From assembly GCA_964476565.1 (NCBI GenBank), contig CAYZBG010000001.1, forward strand, positions 64,405 to 128,404: a DNA stretch of 64,000 nucleotides, given 5' to 3'. Below are positions 5,631 through 16,293 of this stretch, one piece after another (position 1 is the stretch's first letter; each line of letters begins with the position of its first letter). A program made the translations under genes and the position numbers. The notes beneath the pieces are model-generated. The model had not been told where the DNA came from. It made no database searches and worked only from the letters and a program-made list of their open reading frames with translations. The DNA is from an uncultured Opitutus sp. (lineage in GTDB: Bacteria > Verrucomicrobiota > Verrucomicrobiia > Opitutales > Opitutaceae).

Positions 5631-5673
<43 letters not shown>

Positions 5674-5766
5674 TTGTATCGATTTTTTCAATACGTTTCG
5701 CAACATTTCAGAACGCTGCTTACAGAGGAGAAATCGACGTCTCGCGATTTCATGGGGGCCTGTTCG

Positions 5767-5818
5767 ATTTCACACAATTCCACTGGATCGGGGCGAAATG
5801 TGTGAAATCGGGTGTGAA
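5767..5818 (+). promoter_or_regulatory. candidate integrase/Xis arm-type binding module (left arm)
   Basis: ATTTCACACAATTC ... GCGAAATGTGTGAAATCGGGTGTGAA matches, in the same orientation, GTTTCACTCACAATTC GCAAAATGTGTGAAACGACGTGTGAA at 15280-15321. Confidence 0.5.
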
Positions 5819-5873
5819 TTTTTCGGCCGCGCGTACGATTTGACCCGGGACCAAAACCCGCCAGCCTCGGCAC

Positions 5874-6083
5874 GTGATCGGCTTGGTTCTAGCTCCCGTC
5901 TACCTGCTCGTTGCTTGGGTTTTCGCCCTGGTCGTGTGGAATCAGGCCGTCGCTTGGTGGAACGATCCAACCGAAACCCCGCTGCGCATCGGCCTTGCCG
6001 GGCTGTTCATCTGCTTCGGCCTGCTCGTTGCGTACCATCTTGGGGTTGCCCTGATCAACCGCCTTCGAGGCCGGCGCGAGTGA
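5874..6083 (+). CDS. small hydrophobic (2-TM) protein; the only plus-strand gene of the island
   Basis: A 69-aa ORF with a GTG start and two hydrophobic segments (LVLAPVYLLVAWVFALVVW and GLAGLFICFGLLVAYHLGVAL). Confidence 0.5.
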   Translation: MIGLVLAPVYLLVAWVFALVVWNQAVAWWNDPTETPLRIGLAGLFICFGLLVAYHLGVALINRLRGRRE

Positions 6084-6084
6084 A

Positions 6085-6114
6085 CAAAAAAGCCCCGGCG
6101 TTTCGGCCGGGGCT
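6085..6114 (-). terminator. rho-independent terminator ending the leftward island operon
   Basis: The stem is AGCCCCGGC / GCCGGGGCT. On the minus strand it is followed by TTTTTTG. Confidence 0.6.
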
Positions 6115-6131
6115 GTGAGAGTGCGACTGGT

Positions 6132-6416
6132 TCAGCGTGCCGACTTTCTCGGCAACTTGCCGTTCAGAGGAGGGAGAACCTCCGGCCGGTAGACCAGCCT
6201 GAAGAGATGACTCGGGATCGTGCCCCGAGGAAAGCCAATCTTCTCGCCAAGCACACGGACGTACTCTCGCTCGCCAATTGTCGAGGAGACGATTTCAAAC
6301 CATGCGGCCTCGACGTAATGGAGCCTGCCGACGAAGTGTGCGTGATCCCAGTCCGACGGGCTGCCGATCCAGCGAACGCGGTCACCTCTACGGAATGTGT
6401 GCTTCGGGCGCTTCAT
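6132..6416 (-). CDS. hypothetical protein (second gene of a 2-gene cassette)
   Basis: A 94-aa ORF whose ATGA overlaps the stop of the upstream gene by 4 nt. No family recognised. Confidence 0.55.
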   Translation of the reverse strand: MKRPKHTFRRGDRVRWIGSPSDWDHAHFVGRLHYVEAAWFEIVSSTIGEREYVRVLGEKIGFPRGTIPSHLFRLVYRPEVLPPLNGKLPRKSAR

Positions 6417-6658
6417 GACGCCCTCCCGGCCAGGGCTTCGGATGCATCGCGATGGGCTGCAAGCGCGTCACGAACCATAACGTCGTCATCGATATCGCCA
6501 TCTCGGATGGCGGCTCGGACGGCCTTGACGAAGGGCGGCCCGTCGGGGACATCCCCAAAACGCTCCCGTGGACTGTGTGTTTCGCCTTCGATGAAGGAAC
6601 GCGCAAGGGCGCGGATGTACTTGGCTGTGCGGGCTGAGACTTGGACTGTGTGTTTCAT
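6413..6658 (-). CDS. hypothetical small protein, possible ribbon-helix-helix regulator/antitoxin
   Basis: From ATG 6658 the sequence MKHTVQVSARTAKYIRALARSF resembles an RHH strand-helix. Palindromes lie immediately upstream. Confidence 0.45.
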   Translation of the reverse strand: MKHTVQVSARTAKYIRALARSFIEGETHSPRERFGDVPDGPPFVKAVRAAIRDGDIDDDVMVRDALAAHRDASEALAGRAS

Positions 6659-6663
6659 GAGCA

Positions 6664-6741
6664 TGGAATGGATACACATTCCAGTGTCCAGAACCACGCG
6701 TTAGCGTCAATTCGTAACAACCTAATTACAAGGTTGTTACG
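6664..6741 (-). promoter_or_regulatory. two palindromes upstream of the 2-gene cassette (candidate operators)
   Basis: TGGAATG-N6-CATTCCA lies at 6664-6683, just upstream of ATG 6658. A perfect 11-bp inverted repeat CGTAACAACCT-N7-AGGTTGTTACG lies at 6713-6741. Confidence 0.4.
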
Positions 6742-6811
6742 TCGAGTCTCAAGAGGGGCACCATCCGTCAGAGTACGCGAGGCATACGCACAAACGCCGC
6801 ACAAAGGCCCG

Positions 6812-8956
6812 TCAGGTCATCACGCGGCTGCGGTTACGACGGACGATCTCGACGATCTGATCTTCCGTCGACGAGTTCCACTGGATGCGGTTCGCCTCGC
6901 GCCGGCTGTCAACGAGCGTCAGGTTGAGCGGGCGGCCCGCTTCCTCCGCGGTGTCACGGCGTGCCGACGCCTGAGCTGGCACGCTCGCAAGCCCCGCCCG
7001 CGCGGAATCGATCGCAGCGCCCCGCGCGGCGAGATTGCCGTAGATCTGATCGGAAAGACCTGAGACGGCCCGCATTGAGTCCACAAAGCCGCCTGCCGCG
7101 AAGCCAGGGCGCCCCATGCGTGCGCCTTCGAGGGCCGCGATCGCGGGCTGAAAGAGCGGACTCTCGACCATCCATTTCGGCGCGACCCATTCGCCTGCGT
7201 GAACCACGCCGGCCGGCTTTTTCGCGGGCCCGGGTGCGGTGAATCCGCCTTCCTCGAAACCTGCGACGGATGATGCAAGCACCGTACCCTTGGCAATCGC
7301 GATGGAAATGGGAGCTTGGGCCGCGGCGCCGCCGAAGCTCGCGATTGTCGCCAGCGTCGCAGGGACAGCCCAGATCGCAGACGTTGCCGCGGCAACCGGG
7401 ATCGCGGCCGCAACCGCTCCGGCCTGAATCGTTTTCCCTACCGTCGCCTGCAAGAGCATGCCGGCAATCCACTCCGCGAACATGGTGGCGATCGACGAAA
7501 CGACGCTCGTTGCAATCGTGACGCCGACATTCCGCAGCGCATCACGCCAAGTCGTCGTCCCTTTGATCAGGCCTTCGATTGAAGTCTTCGTGCCGGCAAG
7601 CGCCGCGTTGAGCGTACCTGACACCGTCGCCGCGACATTGTTGGCCGTCGTGCCGAGCTGATTGAGAAAGTCCAAGGCCCCGCCTTCAACGCCTTCGCCG
7701 ATGCCCTGAAACGACTGCGAGGGATCGTTCCGATCATCACGGCGCCGGCGTGCAAGGCTGATCCTGCTTTCAGGTTCATCAATGCGGCCGTAAGCCTCGC
7801 TCCGGCGCCGCAAGGCTGCGATCTCGGCGTCAATGCGGGCAACTGCGTCGCTGTCACCCGTCAACGCGCGCTCCTCAAGCCTGAGGGCAATCACGCGCTC
7901 GAGCTGACGGCGGTACTCGGCGGTGTTTTCGGCGAGCCGGGCCCGCGCCGTCGTCTCGTCGAGAAGTCGATTCTGCAGGATCTGCGTCCGCTCTTCGCTG
8001 ATGCGGGTGAGCTCGTCGCCTGCGACATCGGCAATCGACCGCTGAACGGCAAGGATCTGTTGGCCGATTTCGAGGCGGCGCTCTTCGAGAGTAATCGCCC
8101 GCTCCCACTGGACCGGGTCGGCAATGTCAGTGAGGGCCGTCTCTGCGTCGATGGCGGCGAGCTCGGCACGCAGGGCAACAAGCTTCTCGGTCGATGCAAT
8201 GCGGGCAAACTCCGCGTCCGCCTGTTTCTGCCCAAGCTGAGCGGCCCGCTCGTTGAGTTGTAACGCGGCCTGTGCTGCTTCAGTACGCCGACGCGATGCT
8301 TCAGCACGGAGCTTGAGCTGTTCAGTGATCGGCTTGCCGTCTGCCTCGGAATCAATCCGGGCGGCCTCCGCGTTGAGGCGGTTGATTCTCTGACCAATCG
8401 ATTCACCAACCTGATTCTCGGCTGCGAACGTTTCACCGACTGTTTTTAGGGCCGCGGCGTAATCGGCCGCGGCCTTCTCGGCTGCCTTCATGGCCTCCGC
8501 TGCGCGTCGGTTTTCCGCGGTAAGTTCCGCCTGCTTTTTCTTCGTGTCTACGGCAGCGCGGCCCATGTCCTGCCACGAATCGTAAAGTCGAACGGCGGCT
8601 TCCTCGCCCTTGAAGAGCAGTGTCGGGAGCAGCGACAGATTAAGAATTCCCTCCGCCAGGAACTTCTTCCCGCTGGTCGCAAGCCCGTTGAGTGTCGTCT
8701 CGATCCCGCCCATCACCTCGATCGCATCCTGACTTACGCCCGGAATCTTATCGATGTTCTGGACGACGTCGCGGACTTCTCGAACCAAGAGACGCGCCGC
8801 ACCTTGAACCGTGAAGAAGCCGATACCCAGCTTTGCGCCGGCGCCAATCAGGCCGTTCATCGACGTCTGAACACCAACGACAGCACGGCGCAATTGATCG
8901 ACACCCGACAGATCGGACTTCGTCCTTAAAACAAGATCAACAATTTTGCCGGCCAT
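6812..8956 (-). CDS. phage tail tape measure protein
   Basis: 714 aa. It has a long Ala/Glu/Arg coiled-coil centre, hydrophobic Gly/Ala segments and a C-terminal GFEEGGFT...GVVHAGEWVAP motif typical of tape measure proteins. It sits directly downstream of the G/GT chaperone pair. Confidence 0.8.
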   Translation of the reverse strand: MAGKIVDLVLRTKSDLSGVDQLRRAVVGVQTSMNGLIGAGAKLGIGFFTVQGAARLLVREVRDVVQNIDKIPGVSQDAIEVMGGIETTLNGLATSGKKFLAEGILNLSLLPTLLFKGEEAAVRLYDSWQDMGRAAVDTKKKQAELTAENRRAAEAMKAAEKAAADYAAALKTVGETFAAENQVGESIGQRINRLNAEAARIDSEADGKPITEQLKLRAEASRRRTEAAQAALQLNERAAQLGQKQADAEFARIASTEKLVALRAELAAIDAETALTDIADPVQWERAITLEERRLEIGQQILAVQRSIADVAGDELTRISEERTQILQNRLLDETTARARLAENTAEYRRQLERVIALRLEERALTGDSDAVARIDAEIAALRRRSEAYGRIDEPESRISLARRRRDDRNDPSQSFQGIGEGVEGGALDFLNQLGTTANNVAATVSGTLNAALAGTKTSIEGLIKGTTTWRDALRNVGVTIATSVVSSIATMFAEWIAGMLLQATVGKTIQAGAVAAAIPVAAATSAIWAVPATLATIASFGGAAAQAPISIAIAKGTVLASSVAGFEEGGFTAPGPAKKPAGVVHAGEWVAPKWMVESPLFQPAIAALEGARMGRPGFAAGGFVDSMRAVSGLSDQIYGNLAARGAAIDSARAGLASVPAQASARRDTAEEAGRPLNLTLVDSRREANRIQWNSSTEDQIVEIVRRNRSRVMT

Positions 8957-8959
8957 GGT

Positions 8960-9507
8960 TTATCGTCTCCGAGGTTGCCGCATTGCCGTGGCCTCACGCT
9001 TCAAACGCGCGGCCGCCTGCTCTGCCCAAAAGGTGAGCTGGCGGAGCGTGTAGGTTTGAAGCTCCGACCATGAGTGGCCTTGGTGCCTGAGGCTCTCGAT
9101 CAGGCCGCCGATTTCGCCGCGGGACGCAGTACCTGGGCGAACCGGGCGGCGACGGCGTTTCCCGCAGCAAAGAGGTCAGGCGTGCAGTTCACCTCAAGGG
9201 CGGCGTCTGCCAGCGCGAGAACCATCCGCGGCGAAAGCTTTTCAATTTCCTCCGGCTTGAGCTTCGCGGCCTTGCTCACGAGGTCGATGATCAGGGCGCC
9301 GGATGTGCGGACAACGTCGGCAAGTTTCGCGCGATCGAGAACAAGCCCGGCCTCAGTTTGGGAAACGAACTCGCCCGCGGCGGAACCGAGCTTCTCAACG
9401 AAGCCGAGCAGCTGAAGCCAGGTGAGCTCGTGAACGGTGAATTCGCCTTGCGGCGATTTGATGACGCGCGGCTCGCCCGCGAGGATTTCGATGGTTTTGG
9501 AGGACAT
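8960..9507 (-). CDS. tail assembly chaperone G (9100..9507) and its -1 frameshift product GT (extension to 8960)
   Basis: A 135-aa ORF lies immediately upstream of the tape measure gene. The -1 frame is open for 65 codons from the slippery site to a TAA at 8960-8962. Confidence 0.7.
9157..9163 (-). other. -1 slippery heptamer G GGA AAC
   Basis: GGA and AAC are codons 116-117 of the chaperone in frame 0. The X XXY YYZ pattern is as in lambda G/GT (G GGA AAG). Confidence 0.65.
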
Positions 9508-9588
9508 AGGATGTGATGGAGAATTTTGCCCGCGCCGGCGAAGATGGGCCGGCGCGGGCTCAACAACTGACCCAAGTACAGAAAACGG

Positions 9589-10002
9589 TTATGCCGCCGC
9601 GCCGATGGAGCCGATCCATTCGTTCAACAGCGATAGGCCGTCCGGGTGATCATCGGGGAGCGTCTTGATCAGTTCGAGGGCCTCGGCCTTGTCCTGCGCG
9701 CTTCCTTTCATCAAGCGTCGGATTCGCGCGGGAGTATCGGCGGCAGAGGCGCGGACGTTTGACATGCGAATGCCGAAGCCGCGGGCCGCTTTGCCCAACG
9801 TCGCGGCGGACGCCTTCACGTTCATTTTCCCCTTGGGAGCGAACTGACGTGCCCACACCGAATGCGTGGAGGGTCGGGATTGAGTGTTGATGTCGGCGGT
9901 CGGCGTTGCGGATGCCGGCGCGGGCGCGGGCTGCGAGTCGGTCGTTTTGGCGAACTGCTTCGCCCAGACGGAGTGGGTGGAGGGTCGATTGGTTTGGGTC
10001 AT
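9589..10002 (-). CDS. hypothetical phage-module protein with an internal 13-aa repeat
   Basis: 137 aa. RPSTHSVWA(K/R)QFA occurs twice. The gene is tightly packed between the 133-aa gene and the chaperone. Confidence 0.5.
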   Translation of the reverse strand: MTQTNRPSTHSVWAKQFAKTTDSQPAPAPASATPTADINTQSRPSTHSVWARQFAPKGKMNVKASAATLGKAARGFGIRMSNVRASAADTPARIRRLMKGSAQDKAEALELIKTLPDDHPDGLSLLNEWIGSIGAAA

Positions 10003-10006
10003 GGTT

Positions 10007-10408
10007 CTATCCTACGGGCTCAAGGGTTGCATTGCCGGCGGTGACGTCGCCTCCGCCGGACTCGACGGCGAGGGCCAGACGCACGAAGCGCTTGATCGTC
10101 GGCGGGACCTTGAAGATGACCTCGCGGGCCCCGGACCCGGTACCGCCGGCACCGATGACGATGAGCGGCGCGAGGGTGGGAATGGCTTCCCATGCCTCGC
10201 CGTCGCCGGAATGCTGAAGCGTGAGGGTCGCCGCCTTGTCGTCTTCGAGCGCCGGCAGCGCGTCGACCTTGACGACGAAGTTGAAACTCTCGGTGGTTAC
10301 CCAGGGCGTTGCGGCCCCGAGGTCGATCGGATCGCTGCTGGCGGTTCCAGCGGCCGCGGGCAGGGCGGTCACAACGTGCAGAAGGTGGTCGCGAAGGTGG
10401 CGGTTCAT
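10007..10408 (-). CDS. hypothetical structural protein; positional candidate for a tail tube protein
   Basis: 133 aa with beta-rich-looking sequence. Its position is upstream of the chaperone and tape measure genes. There is no motif-level support. Confidence 0.4.
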   Translation of the reverse strand: MNRHLRDHLLHVVTALPAAAGTASSDPIDLGAATPWVTTESFNFVVKVDALPALEDDKAATLTLQHSGDGEAWEAIPTLAPLIVIGAGGTGSGAREVIFKVPPTIKRFVRLALAVESGGGDVTAGNATLEPVG

Positions 10409-10411
10409 GGT

Positions 10412-11098
10412 TCAGTCCTTCTTTTTTCCGCCCTTGCCAAGCAGGCGTTTGATTTCGGCCTGGACGCCATCGACCATGGCCTTTGCGGTTTCGAGCCGGG
10501 CGGGGTGAGCTGTGAGCGCTGCCCGGGCGGCCTCGATCTGCGCTTGGCGGGCCACCACGAAGGCGCATGAATCGCCCACCTGGGCGTACTTGGGAAGTGA
10601 ATACACAGCATCGTGGATCGCGCGTTCCGCCCCATCAATCATGGCCTGGAGGTGTTCCGGCATCGTCTCGATGTACTTGAGGCTTTCGCGCAGTCGGGGC
10701 AGTTCCGACCGTAGTTCCTCGATCCGCTCGAGGCGGCGTTCGGCGGCCTCGCGCTTGGCCATGGCCGCGCTCATCTTCCGGTTGGCTTCCGCGAGCTCCT
10801 TCCCGGCGGCCTCGACTTCTCCGACGATCTCGGGCGCCTCGCGTAGGTCGTCGACGGGAATCTCGTCCTCCGTGAAGTTGAATCGCTCCGCGACCTCGGC
10901 GAAGGACGACAGATTGCACCGATCCTTCAACACCGTGAACAACGCTCGGCGAAACGCCCCGGCGTTCGTCTGGTGATCGGCCCGCGTCTCACGGCACGCC
11001 TCGTTGAAACGCATGCGCCCGGCCGTCGTGACGCCTCGTGCCTCGATGAATTCCGTAAGCCGGTACCAAGGGTCGTTTATTTCGCTCGTCGATCTCAT
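10412..11098 (-). CDS. hypothetical coiled-coil protein
   Basis: From ATG 11098 (MRSTSEINDPWYRL...). The part of track ORF 10412..11554 upstream of this start is Arg-rich off-frame sequence overlapping the better ORF 11125..11493. Confidence 0.55.
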   Translation of the reverse strand: MRSTSEINDPWYRLTEFIEARGVTTAGRMRFNEACRETRADHQTNAGAFRRALFTVLKDRCNLSSFAEVAERFNFTEDEIPVDDLREAPEIVGEVEAAGKELAEANRKMSAAMAKREAAERRLERIEELRSELPRLRESLKYIETMPEHLQAMIDGAERAIHDAVYSLPKYAQVGDSCAFVVARQAQIEAARAALTAHPARLETAKAMVDGVQAEIKRLLGKGGKKKD

Positions 11099-11124
11099 AC
11101 CAATGCGGAGGTTCCCAGCCGGAA

Positions 11125-11493
11125 TTAACCTTCGTTCGATCGTCCCCGGATTCTTCCGAGGTAAAAACGAGTTTCGGCCATTAACTTGCACGCCGCTGCG
11201 GGGGTCACTCCAATCCGCTCGGCAAGCTGGCGTTGGGTGCGGACGCCAGGCAGTTCGCCCAGGAGCCATGCGAGGGCGAACACGCGGCGCCCTGCGCTGA
11301 CGAGGTCCCGGCCCTCGATTGCAAACCGGATCAACGCGGCTGCCGTCTCGCGGGCGGAGACGAGGGCGGCCTCGCTCGCCTCGCCGGCAAACGGGTCGTC
11401 GAACGCGACGGACGGCACCGGCCGGCCGTGATCGTCGTAGCCTGTTGTGCCTCCGTGGCTCAGCGGCGGGCCTTCCTGAACGCCTTGCGCCAC
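11125..11493 (-). CDS. hypothetical HTH-containing protein
   Basis: 122 aa. The segment TQRQLAERIGVTPAAACKLMAE is helix-turn-helix-like. Confidence 0.45.
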   Translation of the reverse strand: MAQGVQEGPPLSHGGTTGYDDHGRPVPSVAFDDPFAGEASEAALVSARETAAALIRFAIEGRDLVSAGRRVFALAWLLGELPGVRTQRQLAERIGVTPAAACKLMAETRFYLGRIRGRSNEG

Positions 11494-11614
11494 ACAGCGG
11501 CGACCGTCGGACGGTTTGAGATCTCGGCCCGTAGTCGAGCCTCTGCTCGATCATTCGCGGCGCGGAGGCGTGCCACCTGTTGCCGTATCGTTGGGCGTTT
11601 CTTTTTCATCGTGT

Positions 11615-12091
11615 TCATTCCTCGAAGTGCTTGGCCAGGGCTTGGTACTCCGTGAAGATTTCCGACCAGATTCCGCGAAGGACTGACCGGCAGAGCGCGA
11701 CGTCACCGGCGGCCGCGGCAAACCGCATCGGGTGTTCCGATTCAGACCTCGACCGGAACGCGTTTAGTTCGCCGGCGGCCCGTTGGAGCCGGGCGCCAAC
11801 CCAGGCCCGGTCCACGAGCTGACCTTCCTTCTCGTCGTTCGCGATCTTGAGTCGGCGTCCGTTTTCCTTCGCGACCCGGAGCCGTGCCGCGGCGAGCGCG
11901 CCGGCGAGTGCGTGATGGACTTCAAGGATCGTGTACGTCTGGCCGTCAGCAACCTTGTGACCGGCTGAGATCAGGCGGCGTTGGAGCGTGGATCGAGCGA
12001 CGCCGAATTGCTCGCAAGCCTCGGCAAGCGTCAATCGGTGGGCGTTGGCTAGTTGGGCCGTGGTACGGCGTTTTCGGATTTTAGTAACCAT
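11615..12091 (-). CDS. Nu1-like terminase small subunit / DNA-packaging HTH protein (tentative)
   Basis: An N-terminal HTH (LTLAEACEQFGVARSTLQRRL) is followed by ARLRVAKENGRRLKIANDEKEGQLVDRAWV. This resembles the lambda Nu1 layout as I remember it. Confidence 0.45.
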   Translation of the reverse strand: MVTKIRKRRTTAQLANAHRLTLAEACEQFGVARSTLQRRLISAGHKVADGQTYTILEVHHALAGALAAARLRVAKENGRRLKIANDEKEGQLVDRAWVGARLQRAAGELNAFRSRSESEHPMRFAAAAGDVALCRSVLRGIWSEIFTEYQALAKHFEE

Positions 12092-12199
12092 AAACTCGAA
12101 GCTCTCTCATGGTGACGAGGCGCGCTCTCGCGGACCCTGTCGGGCCAAGGGCGAAAAGGAGACTTCCTTGGCGGGCAGTGGTGATGCCGCTGCGTTGCT

Positions 12200-12928
12200 T
12201 TACCGCATGAGCGGACGGCGTGGATTGGGTGAGTTCCATCCGACGGTGTCATGGTCCTCACGCACCCACGTGTCTGGGTCATCGTCGTAGCTTCCCCGAT
12301 TATACCATGTCGCAGGATGCGGCACGAATCGGCGCTGATCCTCTGGCCACTGGCTGACGGCTTCCGCGTATGCCTTGGTGCGCTCGGTCAGGTACTCAGC
12401 GGTGGCTGTCTTGAGGGCCTTGGTGATCGCCTTGAGTGCCTCCGGCTTGGCGACCTTCCGCGGATAGAAGGCATAGATGCCAAGGGCGGGAGATATAGAA
12501 TCTTCTCCAGTTCTTCTCTCTTTTTTCTGTCTTTCTTCTGATGTAGCCAACGGACCACTTTGTGACGAATTGGCTAACGCTAGTTCACCATTGGCGAACG
12601 ATGGGCAATCGCTGGCGAACGAAAGCAGAACGTAGGTTGACGGCGCCCGTAGTGGCGGGGTGGTTACGCTGATCAGGCCAACCTCGGAAAGCACCATGAG
12701 ATGCTTCTTGATCGTGCTCACAGAGACGCCGCTAATGCGCTGAATCCACGCGTGCGTGGTGGTGAACTGCTCGCGGCCCTCGTCGCTCGCAATCTCACAG
12801 AGAGCGTCATAGACCGAAAGGGCAGATGCGACGTTGTTGGTAGCGTCGAATGCCTCGCGAATTCGACGCCGGGCGGCCTTGCTCTGCCAGCACCATGGGC
12901 CGTCTTTCGTCGATCGAGGTGAGGTCAT
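12200..12928 (-). CDS. phage replication-organizer-like winged-HTH protein
   Basis: The N-terminal wHTH is ISGVSVSTIKKHLMVLSEVGLISV. The C-terminal YPRKVAKPEALKAI...HPATWYNRGSYDDDP motif is common in prophage replication-associated proteins. Iterons lie inside the linker-coding region. Confidence 0.5.
   Translation of the reverse strand: MTSPRSTKDGPWCWQSKAARRRIREAFDATNNVASALSVYDALCEIASDEGREQFTTTHAWIQRISGVSVSTIKKHLMVLSEVGLISVTTPPLRAPSTYVLLSFASDCPSFANGELALANSSQSGPLATSEERQKKERRTGEDSISPALGIYAFYPRKVAKPEALKAITKALKTATAEYLTERTKAYAEAVSQWPEDQRRFVPHPATWYNRGSYDDDPDTWVREDHDTVGWNSPNPRRPLMR
12491..12622. promoter_or_regulatory. candidate replication origin: three 21-bp-phased iterons next to a polypyrimidine/AT-rich tract
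   Basis: TGGCTAACG, TGGCGAACG and TGGCGAACG start at 12571, 12592 and 12613. The adjacent tract at 12491-12540 is AGATATAGAATCTTCTCCAGTTCTTCTCTCTTTTTTCTGTCTTTCTTCTG. Confidence 0.45.
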
Positions 12929-13098
12929 TTCGCACCATCCTGCCCAAGCAGCCGGCGGTATCGGGTGATCTCATTTTGCAGGGTCACCCGTTCGGCTGGA
13001 TCAGTACATGCGTTGGCGGCCTCGACAGCCTCGGCCAACCGTTCACGCAGGATCTCGTCGGTGGGCCTCGGGGGTAGGTGAAGATCGAGCTGAGTCAT
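12925..13098 (-). CDS. small hypothetical protein
   Basis: An ATGA overlap couples it to the replication-like gene. The start is uncertain (the track gives 13164). Confidence 0.35.
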   Translation of the reverse strand: MTQLDLHLPPRPTDEILRERLAEAVEAANACTDPAERVTLQNEITRYRRLLGQDGAK

Positions 13099-13240
13099 TC
13101 CGCACCGCCTTTCGGAAAGGGCAGAGGGGCGACACATGGACTGCGGCGCCATTGTGCCCGCCATGCGCGGATCTTGGCGGCGAGGCGCGTGGCCTTGTGG
13201 CGAGCGCTGCGGGGCTGATTGTTTTCGCGGCGGTTGGACT

Positions 13241-13465
13241 TCAAGACGCGCCTTTCCCTGCCACTAAAGCGCGAACGGATGCGACTGTGTAGAGACATTG
13301 ACGAAGGCCAGGCACTCGCTTCAAACGGCCCTCTTTTTCCATGCGCCAACAGGTGACTCTGGAGATTCGTTTACTGCCAAGGAGAGCGCGGACGCCTTCC
13401 AGATCTACTGCTAACGGCTCAAGCGTTGGTTGCGTGGTGTGTGATTTTGTTTCGGTGGATTCCAT
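13241..13465 (-). CDS. AlpA/excisionase-like (HTH_17-type) DNA-binding protein
   Basis: 74 aa. GVRALLGSKRISRVTCWRMEKEGRLKRV...YTVASVRALV fits the small MerR-like excisionase pattern. Confidence 0.55.
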   Translation of the reverse strand: MESTETKSHTTQPTLEPLAVDLEGVRALLGSKRISRVTCWRMEKEGRLKRVPGLRQCLYTVASVRALVAGKGAS

Positions 13466-13550
13466 AGGGCACGCTGTGTTGCGTACCCTATTCTATGGAC
13501 CCGATTTGGTTTCATCCTGCTGAATGCAATTCGGCCAGCTGCTGAGCGCC

Positions 13551-13587
13551 AAAAACAACGAACCCAGGGCTTGCTGACCCCGGGTTC
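13551..13587 (-). terminator. rho-independent terminator after the int-orf149 pair
   Basis: The minus strand reads GAACCCGGGG-N8-CCCTGGGTTC followed by GTTGTTTTTGG. Confidence 0.5.
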
Positions 13588-13631
13588 ATGTCGTGCTGAA
13601 CGCGAACCTATGCGCCCTTTTTTCTGCTGAA

Positions 13632-14081
13632 TTATTTGACAGCCTTTGCCCGGCCGCCCGCGCTGGGGCCTACTTTCTTGAGCCTGTCGCGCTCGGCCTC
13701 CATGGCGTTGATCCACCACGTCGGAAAGGAGTCTCTCGCGCGTGACGATACCCATGCAGACTCGGCACCATCGGGCCCGAAGTGAGGAGTGAGTGCCGCG
13801 ATGCACCATTTCCTCAAAGTGTAGATGTTTTTTGTGCCAAGGATGGTCTTGGCTTCTTCGGCCGTATGATAGGTTTCTGGCGAATCTAGACGCTTTTGCG
13901 CGTCAACCAATCCGGCTGCTTCCTCGTTAATCCATCGATTCCAGAAGATCCATTGAACGAGAAGCCGGTGAATCTCTTTTTTCGTCCATAAGCTGGGAGA
14001 TGGTTGCTCGCATCCAAGCACTTTGGCCCAGCCGATCGCCTGGGCAAACATTGCCAGCTCTGCGGGTGTTGGGACCTTCAT
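13632..14081 (-). CDS. hypothetical protein with an excisionase-like HTH segment
   Basis: 149 aa, AT-richer than its surroundings. TAEEAKTILGTKNIYTLRKWC is HTH-like. The start overlaps the integrase stop by 4 nt. Confidence 0.5.
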   Translation of the reverse strand: MKVPTPAELAMFAQAIGWAKVLGCEQPSPSLWTKKEIHRLLVQWIFWNRWINEEAAGLVDAQKRLDSPETYHTAEEAKTILGTKNIYTLRKWCIAALTPHFGPDGAESAWVSSRARDSFPTWWINAMEAERDRLKKVGPSAGGRAKAVK

Positions 14082-15286
14082 GACGCACCCCCAAAGTTGA
14101 CCTTGGCTGCCTGAGAAACGCTGTGCTCTCGCGTGGCAATGCCCTTGTAACGGGCAAGGAGGGTGACGCCTTCGTCAGCATGTCCCAGCCAGTCTGCAAC
14201 GGTCGGGACCGGGACGCCGGCCTGTATCGCCTGCGTGGCGAAGAAATCGCGCAGGTCGTGGTGGGTGAGGCGAGGGATGCCAACGGCCGCGCATGCCCGC
14301 GTGAGGCTCTTCAAAGCCTCGCGGACACGAAAGACGCGGCTCGAGGGATCGACGTGCGGGACACCGTCGACGGCGACCTCTGCCTGCTCTTCCCGCTTGC
14401 GTCGGATCTTCTCGAAGAGCTCACGGGCGGCCGGGATCAGCGGGACTTCACGGTCACCTGCCTCTGTCTTCGTACCGCGTACCCGCAGGACGCCGGTGAC
14501 GAAATCGACGTCGCGCCAAACCAAGCCGGCCGCTTCCCTCTGTCGGCATCCGGTGAAGGCAAGCCCTCGGCAGAAGTCCGCGGCTTCGATGCCCCGCCCG
14601 CCGATGCATTCCATTTCCGCAAAGATCTCGGCCAGCTTGGACGGCGAGGGCAGGTCGGGCTTCTTCGGTCGATCCTTCGCCCTCAGACCGCGTTTCCCGG
14701 CCAGCACGTTGGCGTGAAGGGCGCCGTTCTCGACCGCCCGGTCCAGCATGCGGCGGACCGTCGCGAGGCCCTTGTTGAACAACGACGCCGACCGCCCGGC
14801 CGTGCCGGTCGATTTGGCGCCAGGCGGGCGGAAACCGGTCCCGGATGTCAGGGCCCGGTTCCGCCACTCGTTCACGGCCGTTACGGTGATCTCGTCGGGG
14901 CGGAGGGACGCGAAACCTGGCCATGTCTTCTCGACGTAGTCAATCGACTGCAGCCGCATCTCCTTGGACTTCGGTCCGATCTCGGCAAGTTGCGCGATTG
15001 CGGCGCGCTCGAGGGCGACCAGTTCCGCCATGGTAGCGACGCCCGCCTTGGCCTTGCGGGACGCCTTGCGCACCCGTTCCACCGATGCCTTGCGATCAGC
15101 GAAGCGGCGCCGGGCAACTTCGAGCTCTGTCGTGCCGAGCGCTTCAAAGCGGTTCTTGCCGGCGAGAGTGAACCGCGCATAAAAGCGTTTCGTTTTCGTG
15201 TGACGGAGCAGGCCCTTCGGCCAGCTCGATGTTCTTTGCCAAGTCTTCGGGGTGGTCTCGTTGCTCATGGTTTCACCGTGTTTCAC
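14078..15286 (-). CDS. int: tyrosine recombinase / phage integrase
   Basis: The C-terminal catalytic region reads RLTHHDLRDFFATQAIQAGVPVPTVADWLGHADEGVTLLARY. The gene abuts the tRNA target. The start is GTG 15286 or ATG 15268. Confidence 0.9.
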   Translation of the reverse strand: MKHGETMSNETTPKTWQRTSSWPKGLLRHTKTKRFYARFTLAGKNRFEALGTTELEVARRRFADRKASVERVRKASRKAKAGVATMAELVALERAAIAQLAEIGPKSKEMRLQSIDYVEKTWPGFASLRPDEITVTAVNEWRNRALTSGTGFRPPGAKSTGTAGRSASLFNKGLATVRRMLDRAVENGALHANVLAGKRGLRAKDRPKKPDLPSPSKLAEIFAEMECIGGRGIEAADFCRGLAFTGCRQREAAGLVWRDVDFVTGVLRVRGTKTEAGDREVPLIPAARELFEKIRRKREEQAEVAVDGVPHVDPSSRVFRVREALKSLTRACAAVGIPRLTHHDLRDFFATQAIQAGVPVPTVADWLGHADEGVTLLARYKGIATREHSVSQAAKVNFGGAS

Positions 15287-15321
15287 TCACAATTCGCAAA
15301 ATGTGTGAAACGACGTGTGAA
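15280..15321 (+). promoter_or_regulatory. candidate arm-type binding module (right arm)
   Basis: See the left-arm module at 5767-5818. This copy overlaps the 5' end of the integrase gene. Confidence 0.5.
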
Positions 15322-15366
15322 ACAAAAAGCAATGTGATAGTCCTAAGGCATTGGTTGTCAGTGGAA

Positions 15367-16293
<927 letters not shown>

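Follow-up and report, generated by a model that had tools for sequence, protein, structure and literature searches.

A 9.7-kb island (positions 5631–15408) in a 64,000-nt stretch of DNA from an uncultured Opitutus sp. (contig CAYZBG010000001.1; the whole stretch is hereafter called the window) is probably an integrative, helper-dependent phage satellite of an undescribed family, the core of which consists of a TerS-like, a helix-turn-helix (HTH), and a coiled-coil gene. This is the best-supported reading, and its support is comparative, not experimental. The element is a small, discrete island with its own integrase and replication initiator; it lacks a virion gene set, recurs as a unit elsewhere, and carries genes by which a helper phage could be redirected, namely, those for a TerS-like protein (at the level of hidden Markov models, HMMs), a capsid cement protein, the tail assembly chaperones G/GT, and a tape measure protein (TMP). 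Its ends are marked by a perfect direct repeat of 42 nt (5631–5672 and 15367–15408), and the perfect att sites that an earlier sequence-only reading of this DNA had described were thereby confirmed (42 of 42 nt, at a tRNA-Arg gene). Between the repeats lie 9,694 bp, 87% of which are coding, with every gene on the minus strand; the GC content of the interior is 0.62 versus 0.647 for the rest of the window (about 63–65% for the window overall). From terS to an intrinsic terminator, the genes form a single co-directional late operon:

11615–12091, minus strand: TerS-like protein, 158 amino acids (aa); matches phrog_57 (terminase small subunit) at 1.3e-6
11125–11493, minus strand: hth122, conserved HTH protein, 122 aa; upstream of cc228 in six island lineages
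10412–11098, minus strand: cc228, coiled-coil hallmark protein, 228 aa; family of seven clusters, AlphaFold2 model
10007–10408, minus strand: Bbp16-type capsid cement/decoration protein, 133 aa, assigned from PF21190, a PDB profile, and synteny
9589–10002, minus strand: p137, 137 aa, two motif copies and a helical C-terminal domain; no database match
8960–9507, minus strand: G/GT tail assembly chaperone pair; phrog_1442 at 3e-5, slip site, open −1 frame
6812–8956, minus strand: tail length TMP, 714 aa; nine PHROG families, down to 3e-13
6413–6697, minus strand: p94a, 94 aa, 4-nt overlap with p94b; 72% identity and a dN/dS of 0.32 in comparison with contig L001 (see below)
6132–6416, minus strand: p94b, 94 aa; 95% identity and a dN/dS of 0.39 in the same comparison
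6091–6114, minus strand: intrinsic terminator closing the late operon; a T run after a 9-bp stem in which 8 pairs are GC

The G chaperone is encoded at 9507–9100; reading in the −1 frame gives T, which extends to 8960. The slip site G_GGA_AAC (9163–9157) lies in the correct X_XXY_YYZ frame, and the −1 frame has no stop over 67 codons until a TAA (8962–8960) is reached, 3 nt before the start codon of TMP. The features by which the G/GT–TMP module of long-tailed phages is recognized (an in-frame slip site, a −1 extension, and a location directly upstream of TMP) are all found here, and this canonical frameshifted pair suggests a long-tailed, probably siphovirus, helper. The in-frame GGGAAAC and the open T frame are kept in the closest relative of the island, on contig L001, where the T peptide is 67% identical; the recoding site is as intact as had been claimed. 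Seven of the nine PHROG families matched by the 714-aa protein are annotated as TMP. Among cultured phages, all 12 records listed of the 29 that match it do so under an annotated TMP gene, and the matches in these 12 fall within residues 455–633, mostly on a short C-terminal motif (∼556–633). Homologues are also found on contigs L001 (71% identity) and L016 (31% identity, 2e-45). Thus, the PHROG matches and the slip site bear out the earlier assignment of a 714-aa tape measure and G/GT chaperones. On a 3.7-kb contig from Logan run ERR3494950, TMP and p94b are 100% and p94a is 99% identical to those of the window; therefore, the same or a near-identical island has been sequenced independently. 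Past TMP, only the two 94-aa genes follow before the terminator (6114–6091), which begins 18 nt after the stop codon of p94b, and no baseplate or fibre gene is present there, in agreement with the earlier reading. No family match was obtained for p94a or p94b (the latter searched in Pfam, PHROGs, and PADLOC). Contig L001 carries an extra gene (9270–9998; 242 aa) between the T frame and TMP that the window lacks. The sole relative of this gene, which has no family match, is one for a 241-aa protein on contig L013, where it lies between the genes for a ClpP protease and TMP.

The sequence-only reading had described the element as head-less and had taken the 133-aa protein, with a question mark, for a tail tube protein; neither view could be upheld. 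The protein reaches 27.2 bits against PF21190 (Bbp16; cut-off 27.1), and, when combined with 14 homologues into a profile, it matches the cementing protein of Bordetella phage BPP-1 (3j4u_H, 8e-13) and a capsid decoration protein (8cjz_B, 1e-3). In three metagenomic phages (L003, L005, and L007) and in Akkermansia phage Chantilly, its homologue is encoded directly after the major capsid gene, with portal and protease genes upstream. Among cultured phages, a homologue could be detected only in the Akkermansia muciniphila phages Chantilly and Chambord (31–33% identity), which hints weakly at a host among Verrucomicrobiota. Judged by these matches and by its position after major capsid genes, the 133-aa protein is a Bbp16-type capsid cement/decoration protein. 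Therefore, the island is not purely a tail element; it contains a head gene, albeit an accessory one.

A further, probably capsid-targeted, protein is p137, in which the motif RPSTHSVWA(K/R)QFA is present twice and which matched nothing among PDB sequences. Relatives are encoded on contigs L001, L008, and L016, those of L008 and L016 with three motif copies. On contig L013, the C-terminal 80 residues of a ClpP prohead protease (786–1610), located beyond the catalytic domain, consist of three copies of the p137 motif (STEEVFARQF). Terminal peptides carry prohead proteases and scaffolds into procapsids, as in lambda C/Nu3 and the HK97 protease. Because the motif forms the extension of the L013 protease, and because such terminal peptides target procapsids, p137 is probably a capsid-targeted or scaffold-like protein. 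Among all sequences compared in this analysis, the STHxVWARQF motif is confined to the island family; it was sought in true phage loci and not found there, so that mimicry of a helper peptide by p137 is unsupported.

Scanning the 14 minus-strand genes against Pfam and PHROGs revealed no large terminase, portal, major capsid, tube, baseplate, or fibre gene. The largest non-coding gaps measure 459, 166, and 121 nt, the first being the arm on the attL side; therefore, no hidden gene for a large terminase, portal, major capsid, tube, or baseplate protein can reside in them. The scans and the gap sizes together bear out what had been inferred from the letters alone, namely, that no large terminase, portal, or major capsid protein is encoded. 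The tight packing reported for the element (spacings of 3–5 nt or overlaps) applies to some junctions (−4, 3, 3, and 4 nt), whereas others measure 26–166 nt.

The three core genes head the late operon. The TerS-like protein has an N-terminal winged HTH of the MerR/excisionase type followed by a helical C-terminal part, and phrog_57 is also matched by the products of the equivalent genes on contigs L009 (1.4e-9) and L016 (1.2e-5), that is, in three lineages including the window. Homologues of hth122 on contigs L001, L008, L009, L016, and L018 are 36–62% identical to the window protein, and in every lineage except L009 their genes are adjacent to that of cc228. An AlphaFold2 model of cc228 (pLDDT 85) shows a long helical hairpin preceded by a small helical domain at the N-terminus. 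Foldseek found no match to it with E < 0.08 in PDB or BFVD, and its profile retrieved only generic coiled coils from PDB. From its position heading the morphogenesis genes, we would guess that cc228 is a scaffold or a determinant of capsid size. Of the proteins of 133, 137, and 229 aa that the sequence-only reading had singled out for identification, only the first was, thus, assigned, as a cement protein; the 137-aa protein has no database match and cc228 no structural match. A longer open reading frame for 380 aa (10412–11554), the additional N-terminus of which is rich in Arg and Pro, was rejected as a high-GC artefact because the homologues of cc228 are 228–257 aa long.

Among 5.8 billion proteins, only one close relative of TMP was found (71% identity). 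It is encoded on contig L001, from a copper-mine metagenome, in a 10.5-kb island located at a tRNA-Ala gene and flanked by a 24-nt repeat. Ten genes are common to this island and that of the window, with amino acid identities ranging from 31 to 96% (p79, 75%; TerS, 34%; HTH, 60%; coiled-coil, 93%; cement, 96%; p137, 84%; G, 63%; TMP, 71%; p94a, 72%; and p94b, 95%). In contrast, the integrase and the replication genes differ between the two islands, as does the chromosomal context, and nucleotide identity across the G and TMP genes is only about 70%. For the ten common genes, the ratio of nonsynonymous to synonymous substitution rates (dN/dS; Nei-Gojobori) lies between 0.17 and 0.47, with that of TMP being 0.17 at a dS of 1.27, and no pseudogenes were found in the island. 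The low dN/dS indicates purifying selection, and the spread of dS from 0.06 to 1.7 between genes indicates mosaic exchange.

The wider family was delimited by searching 1.84 billion representative proteins exhaustively (HMMER) with cc228 as the query; only seven clusters were returned. Six of these were looked up, and four are on contigs long enough for their context to be judged; each of the four is part of a small island or an island-type gene cluster in which neither a large terminase nor a portal is encoded. L008 and L015, which account for the remaining two, are short fragments (at most 2 kb); on L008, the hth–cc pair is still recognizable. Besides the islands of the window and of L001, the following were recognized:

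Contig L009: island of 9.2 kb at tRNA-Leu
Contigs L016/L017: island of about 10.2 kb at tRNA-Glu
Contigs L018/L019 (L018, 3510–14150): island of 10.7 kb at tRNA-Val, 51-nt repeat
Contig L013: fragment with an island-type gene cluster

At least five discrete islands of 9.2–10.7 kb, located at tRNA-Arg, Ala, Val, Leu, and Glu and equipped with diverse tyrosine integrases, make up the family; none of the five has a large terminase or portal gene, and all-against-all BLAST identified TerS-like–HTH–coiled-coil as its core. This recurrence as a conserved unit in other genomes had been proposed as a check on the satellite interpretation; the same interpretation was to fall if relatives turned out to be full-length prophages, and they are islands. 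There are four lineages with a confirmed TMP (the window, L001, L016/L017, and L013): the L016 homologue has PHROG TMP matches of its own, and on L013, a TMP gene cut by the contig end (phrog_9483, 9e-18) follows that for the ClpP prohead protease. In L018, the hth–cc core is followed by a gene for a GP7-type major capsid protein (PF20911; phrog_212, 2e-22), with no portal, terminase, or TMP gene. L009 encodes a 564-aa protein of TMP-like composition that no HMM confirmed. No relatives were found in GTDB species genomes when TMP and an alignment of cc228 were used for searching, and a metagenome scan returned only the L001 contig again and one 1-kb fragment.

The remaining features of the island concern its integration, replication, and ends (those listed without strand are non-coding sites):

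14078–15286, minus strand: tyrosine integrase, 402 aa; PF00589 at 8e-16, phrog_1 at 1e-39
13632–14081, minus strand: p149, 149 aa, 4-nt overlap with the end of int; no family match
13241–13465, minus strand: p74, Xis/AlpA-like by sequence pattern (HTH_17-like, recognized by eye)
12925–13164, minus strand: p79, small conserved protein; 75% identity in L001, 51% in L016
12200–12928, minus strand: replication initiator, 242 aa; phrog_270 at 8e-18, phrog_9474 at 3e-11
15367–15408: attR core, inside the intact tRNA-Arg(TCT) gene (15368–15444, plus strand); repeat and tRNA calls
5631–5672: attL, 42-nt core duplicating the 5′ part of tRNA-Arg; perfect repeat of 15367–15408
5730–5830: non-coding arm beside attL with GTGTGAAA(T/C) repeats; candidate integrase arm-type sites

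The Pfam and PHROG scans and conservation within the family agree with the earlier inventory insofar as it comprised an integrase, a replication protein, a TerS-like HTH protein, an HTH protein, and a coiled-coil protein. Of the Xis-like proteins in that inventory, what stands is the HTH_17-like pattern of p74, from which we infer an Xis/AlpA-like protein; HMM matches at E ≤ 0.01 were obtained neither for p74 nor for p149 (Pfam and PHROGs). For p79, no meaningful family match was found. The iterons reported inside the replication gene were not accepted as such, as a repeat search of the gene yielded only short two-copy matches (11–23 nt, 74–100% identity) and no iteron array. A plus-strand open reading frame for 404 aa, antisense to int, was rejected as a high-GC artefact.

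The att repeat corresponds to the 5′ half of tRNA-Arg (positions 1–41, through the anticodon loop), its right-hand copy being the first 41 nt of tRNA-Arg(TCT). Because the island is located upstream of the intact gene, the 5′ half and the upstream region of the functional tRNA-Arg derive from the island; the native tRNA-Arg promoter now faces a 42-nt stump. Elements integrating into tRNA genes usually duplicate the 3′ part, and the relatives L001, L018, and L009 use the 3′ end of their tRNA genes, unlike the island of the window. An Rfam scan detected two tRNAs and nothing else. Three copies of the octamer GTGTGAAA are present in the window (5800, 15303, and 15315), all of them in the non-coding ends of the island; copies in reverse orientation are found at 5768 (attL end) and 5413 (just outside attL). 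In both arms (5730–5830 and 15296–15325), GTGTGAAA(T/C) motifs are clustered together with a palindrome, GAAATCG…CGATTTC. These clusters are plausible as arm-type sites for the integrase; alternatively, they may form a pac/cos region.

If the island is a satellite, its cycle would begin with the induction of, or infection by, a siphovirus helper, whereupon the island would be excised by Int, possibly with the Xis-like p74, and replicated by the 242-aa initiator. The TerS-like protein would steer the large terminase of the helper onto island DNA, and the cement protein, p137, and cc228 would act on the helper's procapsids, stabilizing the capsid and probably redirecting its size in a manner akin to P4 Psu/Sid or SaPI Cpm. 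G/GT and the 714-aa TMP would take the place of the helper's chaperone and tape measure, so that the tube, tip, and fibre proteins of the helper would assemble around a core specified by the satellite. The result would be chimeric virions with a predicted tail of roughly 105 nm (714 aa at about 1.5 Å per residue). By analogy with the Vibrio PLEs (discussed below), an own TMP likely frees the transmission of the satellite from the helper's TMP; it would also permit interference with tail assembly of the helper. More tentatively, the island may be a founding member of a satellite family, possibly of Verrucomicrobiota-like hosts, in which lineages swap in different parts of the helper virion and in which STHxVWA(R/K)QF serves as a portable capsid-targeting peptide. 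The swapped parts would then be the major capsid protein (L018), ClpP protease plus TMP (L013), and cement protein plus G/GT plus TMP (window), and such “modular virion-part substitution”, in heads and in tails, would be a general strategy of satellites, also for non-contractile tails.

Several results weigh against the island being a satellite. No homologue of the structural genes, as represented by four phage and island query loci, was found in the other 54 kb of the window, so no helper was located there. Among IMG/VR viral contigs, alignments of cc228 and hth122 retrieved no member of the family, and there is, therefore, no sign of encapsidation. HMMs did not detect a Stl- or AlpA-type regulator among the island proteins. 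The TerS assignment draws on HMM E-values of 1e-5 to 1e-9 and was not confirmed by other comparisons: tblastn of the 158-aa protein and its L009 counterpart against 50,697 phage records gave no match, nor did the 158-aa protein match PDB sequences, and its single-sequence model (pLDDT 68) has weak structural matches to MerR/excisionase-type HTH domains only. Finally, scans of PDB, Foldseek, and PADLOC did not establish the roles of cc228, p137, p94a, and p94b. The first two of these results count in favour of an integrative defence or interference island, in which TMP, G/GT, and the cement protein would be poison subunits or decoys directed against a siphovirus, and which would spread by other routes. 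Blocking of tail assembly is a known mode of defence (Tai systems, PMC11364771; Rta in PLE11), and structural cargo that differs among family members, as is the case here, is often seen in defence cargo. Nevertheless, we regard this explanation as unlikely. A TerS-like gene heads the late operon in those lineages in which this can be checked, which is hard to explain without packaging, and retention of TMP together with matching G/GT and an intact slip site fits productive tail assembly better than poisoning. Furthermore, PADLOC yielded no meaningful defence match for the island proteins without assigned function, only coiled-coil noise. The two explanations are not mutually exclusive either, as PLEs do both.

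That the island is the cryptic remnant of a full siphovirus prophage, from which head, tube, and tip genes were deleted, might be suspected because all its structural genes have phage homologues and follow the canonical order of late genes (terS … cement … G/GT, TMP). However, this would require at least three to four precise deletions, leaving junctions of 3–4 nt, and the same reduced gene set is present in L001 at another tRNA gene and with another integrase. In addition, five independent islands all fall within 9.2–10.7 kb, the exhaustive cc228 search did not reveal a single member in a full-length phage, and a dN/dS of 0.17–0.47, the lack of pseudogenes, the conserved slip site, and the perfect att sites do not speak for decay. 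On these comparisons, a defective prophage appears largely refuted and extremely improbable. It also seems very improbable that the island is one part of a split, domesticated system under host control, resembling a gene transfer agent or a tailocin, with the head and tube genes located elsewhere on the chromosome. Gene transfer agents can be encoded at several loci; yet the island is mobile, with its own integrase, initiator, and att sites and a GC content that deviates from that of its flanks (0.62 versus 0.647), its relatives reside at different tRNA genes with different integrases, and it has no sheath, tube, or baseplate gene.

As a satellite, the island belongs to a kind of element that, until 2025, was thought to take the tails of its helpers unchanged. 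The sequence-only reading had considered an own tape measure a new satellite strategy, which it no longer is. Chimeric tails built with a satellite's TMP and chaperone were shown for the PLEs of Vibrio: these encode TMP and a tail assembly chaperone, and some, for example, PLE11, also a baseplate hub; their virions incorporate the TMP of the PLE to the exclusion of that of the helper and have tails about 10 nm shorter; and deletion of tmp lowers transduction by 96–99.9% (Mathur, Boyd et al, Nature 2026, PMC12987554). The same study lists putative tmp genes in PLE-like elements and some cf-PICIs (Extended Data Fig. 10 therein). TMP is also encoded by the 11-kb EPIP satellites, the tails of which are altered in length (Qian et al, bioRxiv, December 2025, PMC12822802). 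Experimental support for satellite-specified tape measures has, so far, come from PLEs and possibly EPIPs only; the island of the window extends the own-TMP strategy to an apparently unrelated family that integrates into tRNA genes with tyrosine integrases in a high-GC host. This family is missed by current catalogues of satellites and viruses: the IMG/VR searches retrieved no member, and the exhaustive protein search only a few clusters. As a compact family with differing virion parts, it constitutes a natural comparative system for the benefit a satellite draws from owning its TMP.

PLEs (V. cholerae, phage ICP1) come closest in the way of working. They are likewise small and integrative, with an incomplete virion set and their own tmp–tac genes; the likeness is one of operation and makes no case for shared descent. 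ICP1 has a contractile tail, whereas G/GT–TMP and the lambda-type similarity of the TMP C-terminus suggest a long-tailed, probably siphovirus, helper for the island. The island also differs from PLEs in encoding a Bbp16-type cement protein, in using a tyrosine integrase for integration at a tRNA gene, and, as far as PLE11 and similar PLEs are concerned, in lacking a baseplate hub after TMP. Given the tyrosine integrase, the high-GC host, and the siphovirus-type G/GT, it is very unlikely to belong to the PLE family, as far as PLEs can be compared by description. EPIPs (Mycolicibacterium aichiense) are similar in size (about 11 kb) and also encode TerS, an HTH protein, a scaffold, and TMP; unlike the island, they have a serine integrase, a major capsid protein, and a head-to-tail adaptor/stopper, and their host belongs to another phylum (PMC12822802).

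With PICIs (SaPIs and Gram-negative PICIs), the island shares the size class, the int–regulation–replication–terS layout, site-specific integration, and the lack of genes for a large terminase, portal, and major capsid protein. PICIs hijack complete helper tails and have no tail genes (PMC12987554), whereas the island has TMP, G/GT, and a cement protein. Among its proteins, HMMs detected neither a Stl/AlpA-type regulator nor a primase-helicase, and all its genes run in one direction from int. The cf-PICIs also carry structural genes of phages, some of them a putative tmp (PMC12987554), and possess a full capsid set (major capsid, portal, protease, and connectors), none of which is found in the island of the window; only the related island L018 has a major capsid gene.

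The satellite P4 provides a capsid decoration protein (Psu) and a helical size-determining protein (Sid) for the capsid of its helper, and something similar could be true of the cement protein and cc228. Unlike P4, which has no tail genes, the island encodes a cement protein that belongs to the Bbp16 jelly-roll-type fold family and not to the Psu fold, and PHROG and Pfam scans of all island proteins gave no P4-type match to Sid, Psu, Delta, or the alpha primase-helicase. To our knowledge, this is the first satellite reported with a textbook G/GT frameshift chaperone pair. By these comparisons, the island appears to belong to no satellite family described so far; what is new is a family with an hth–cc hallmark, a frameshifted G/GT pair, the pairing of a cement protein with TMP, and variation of cargo among its members.

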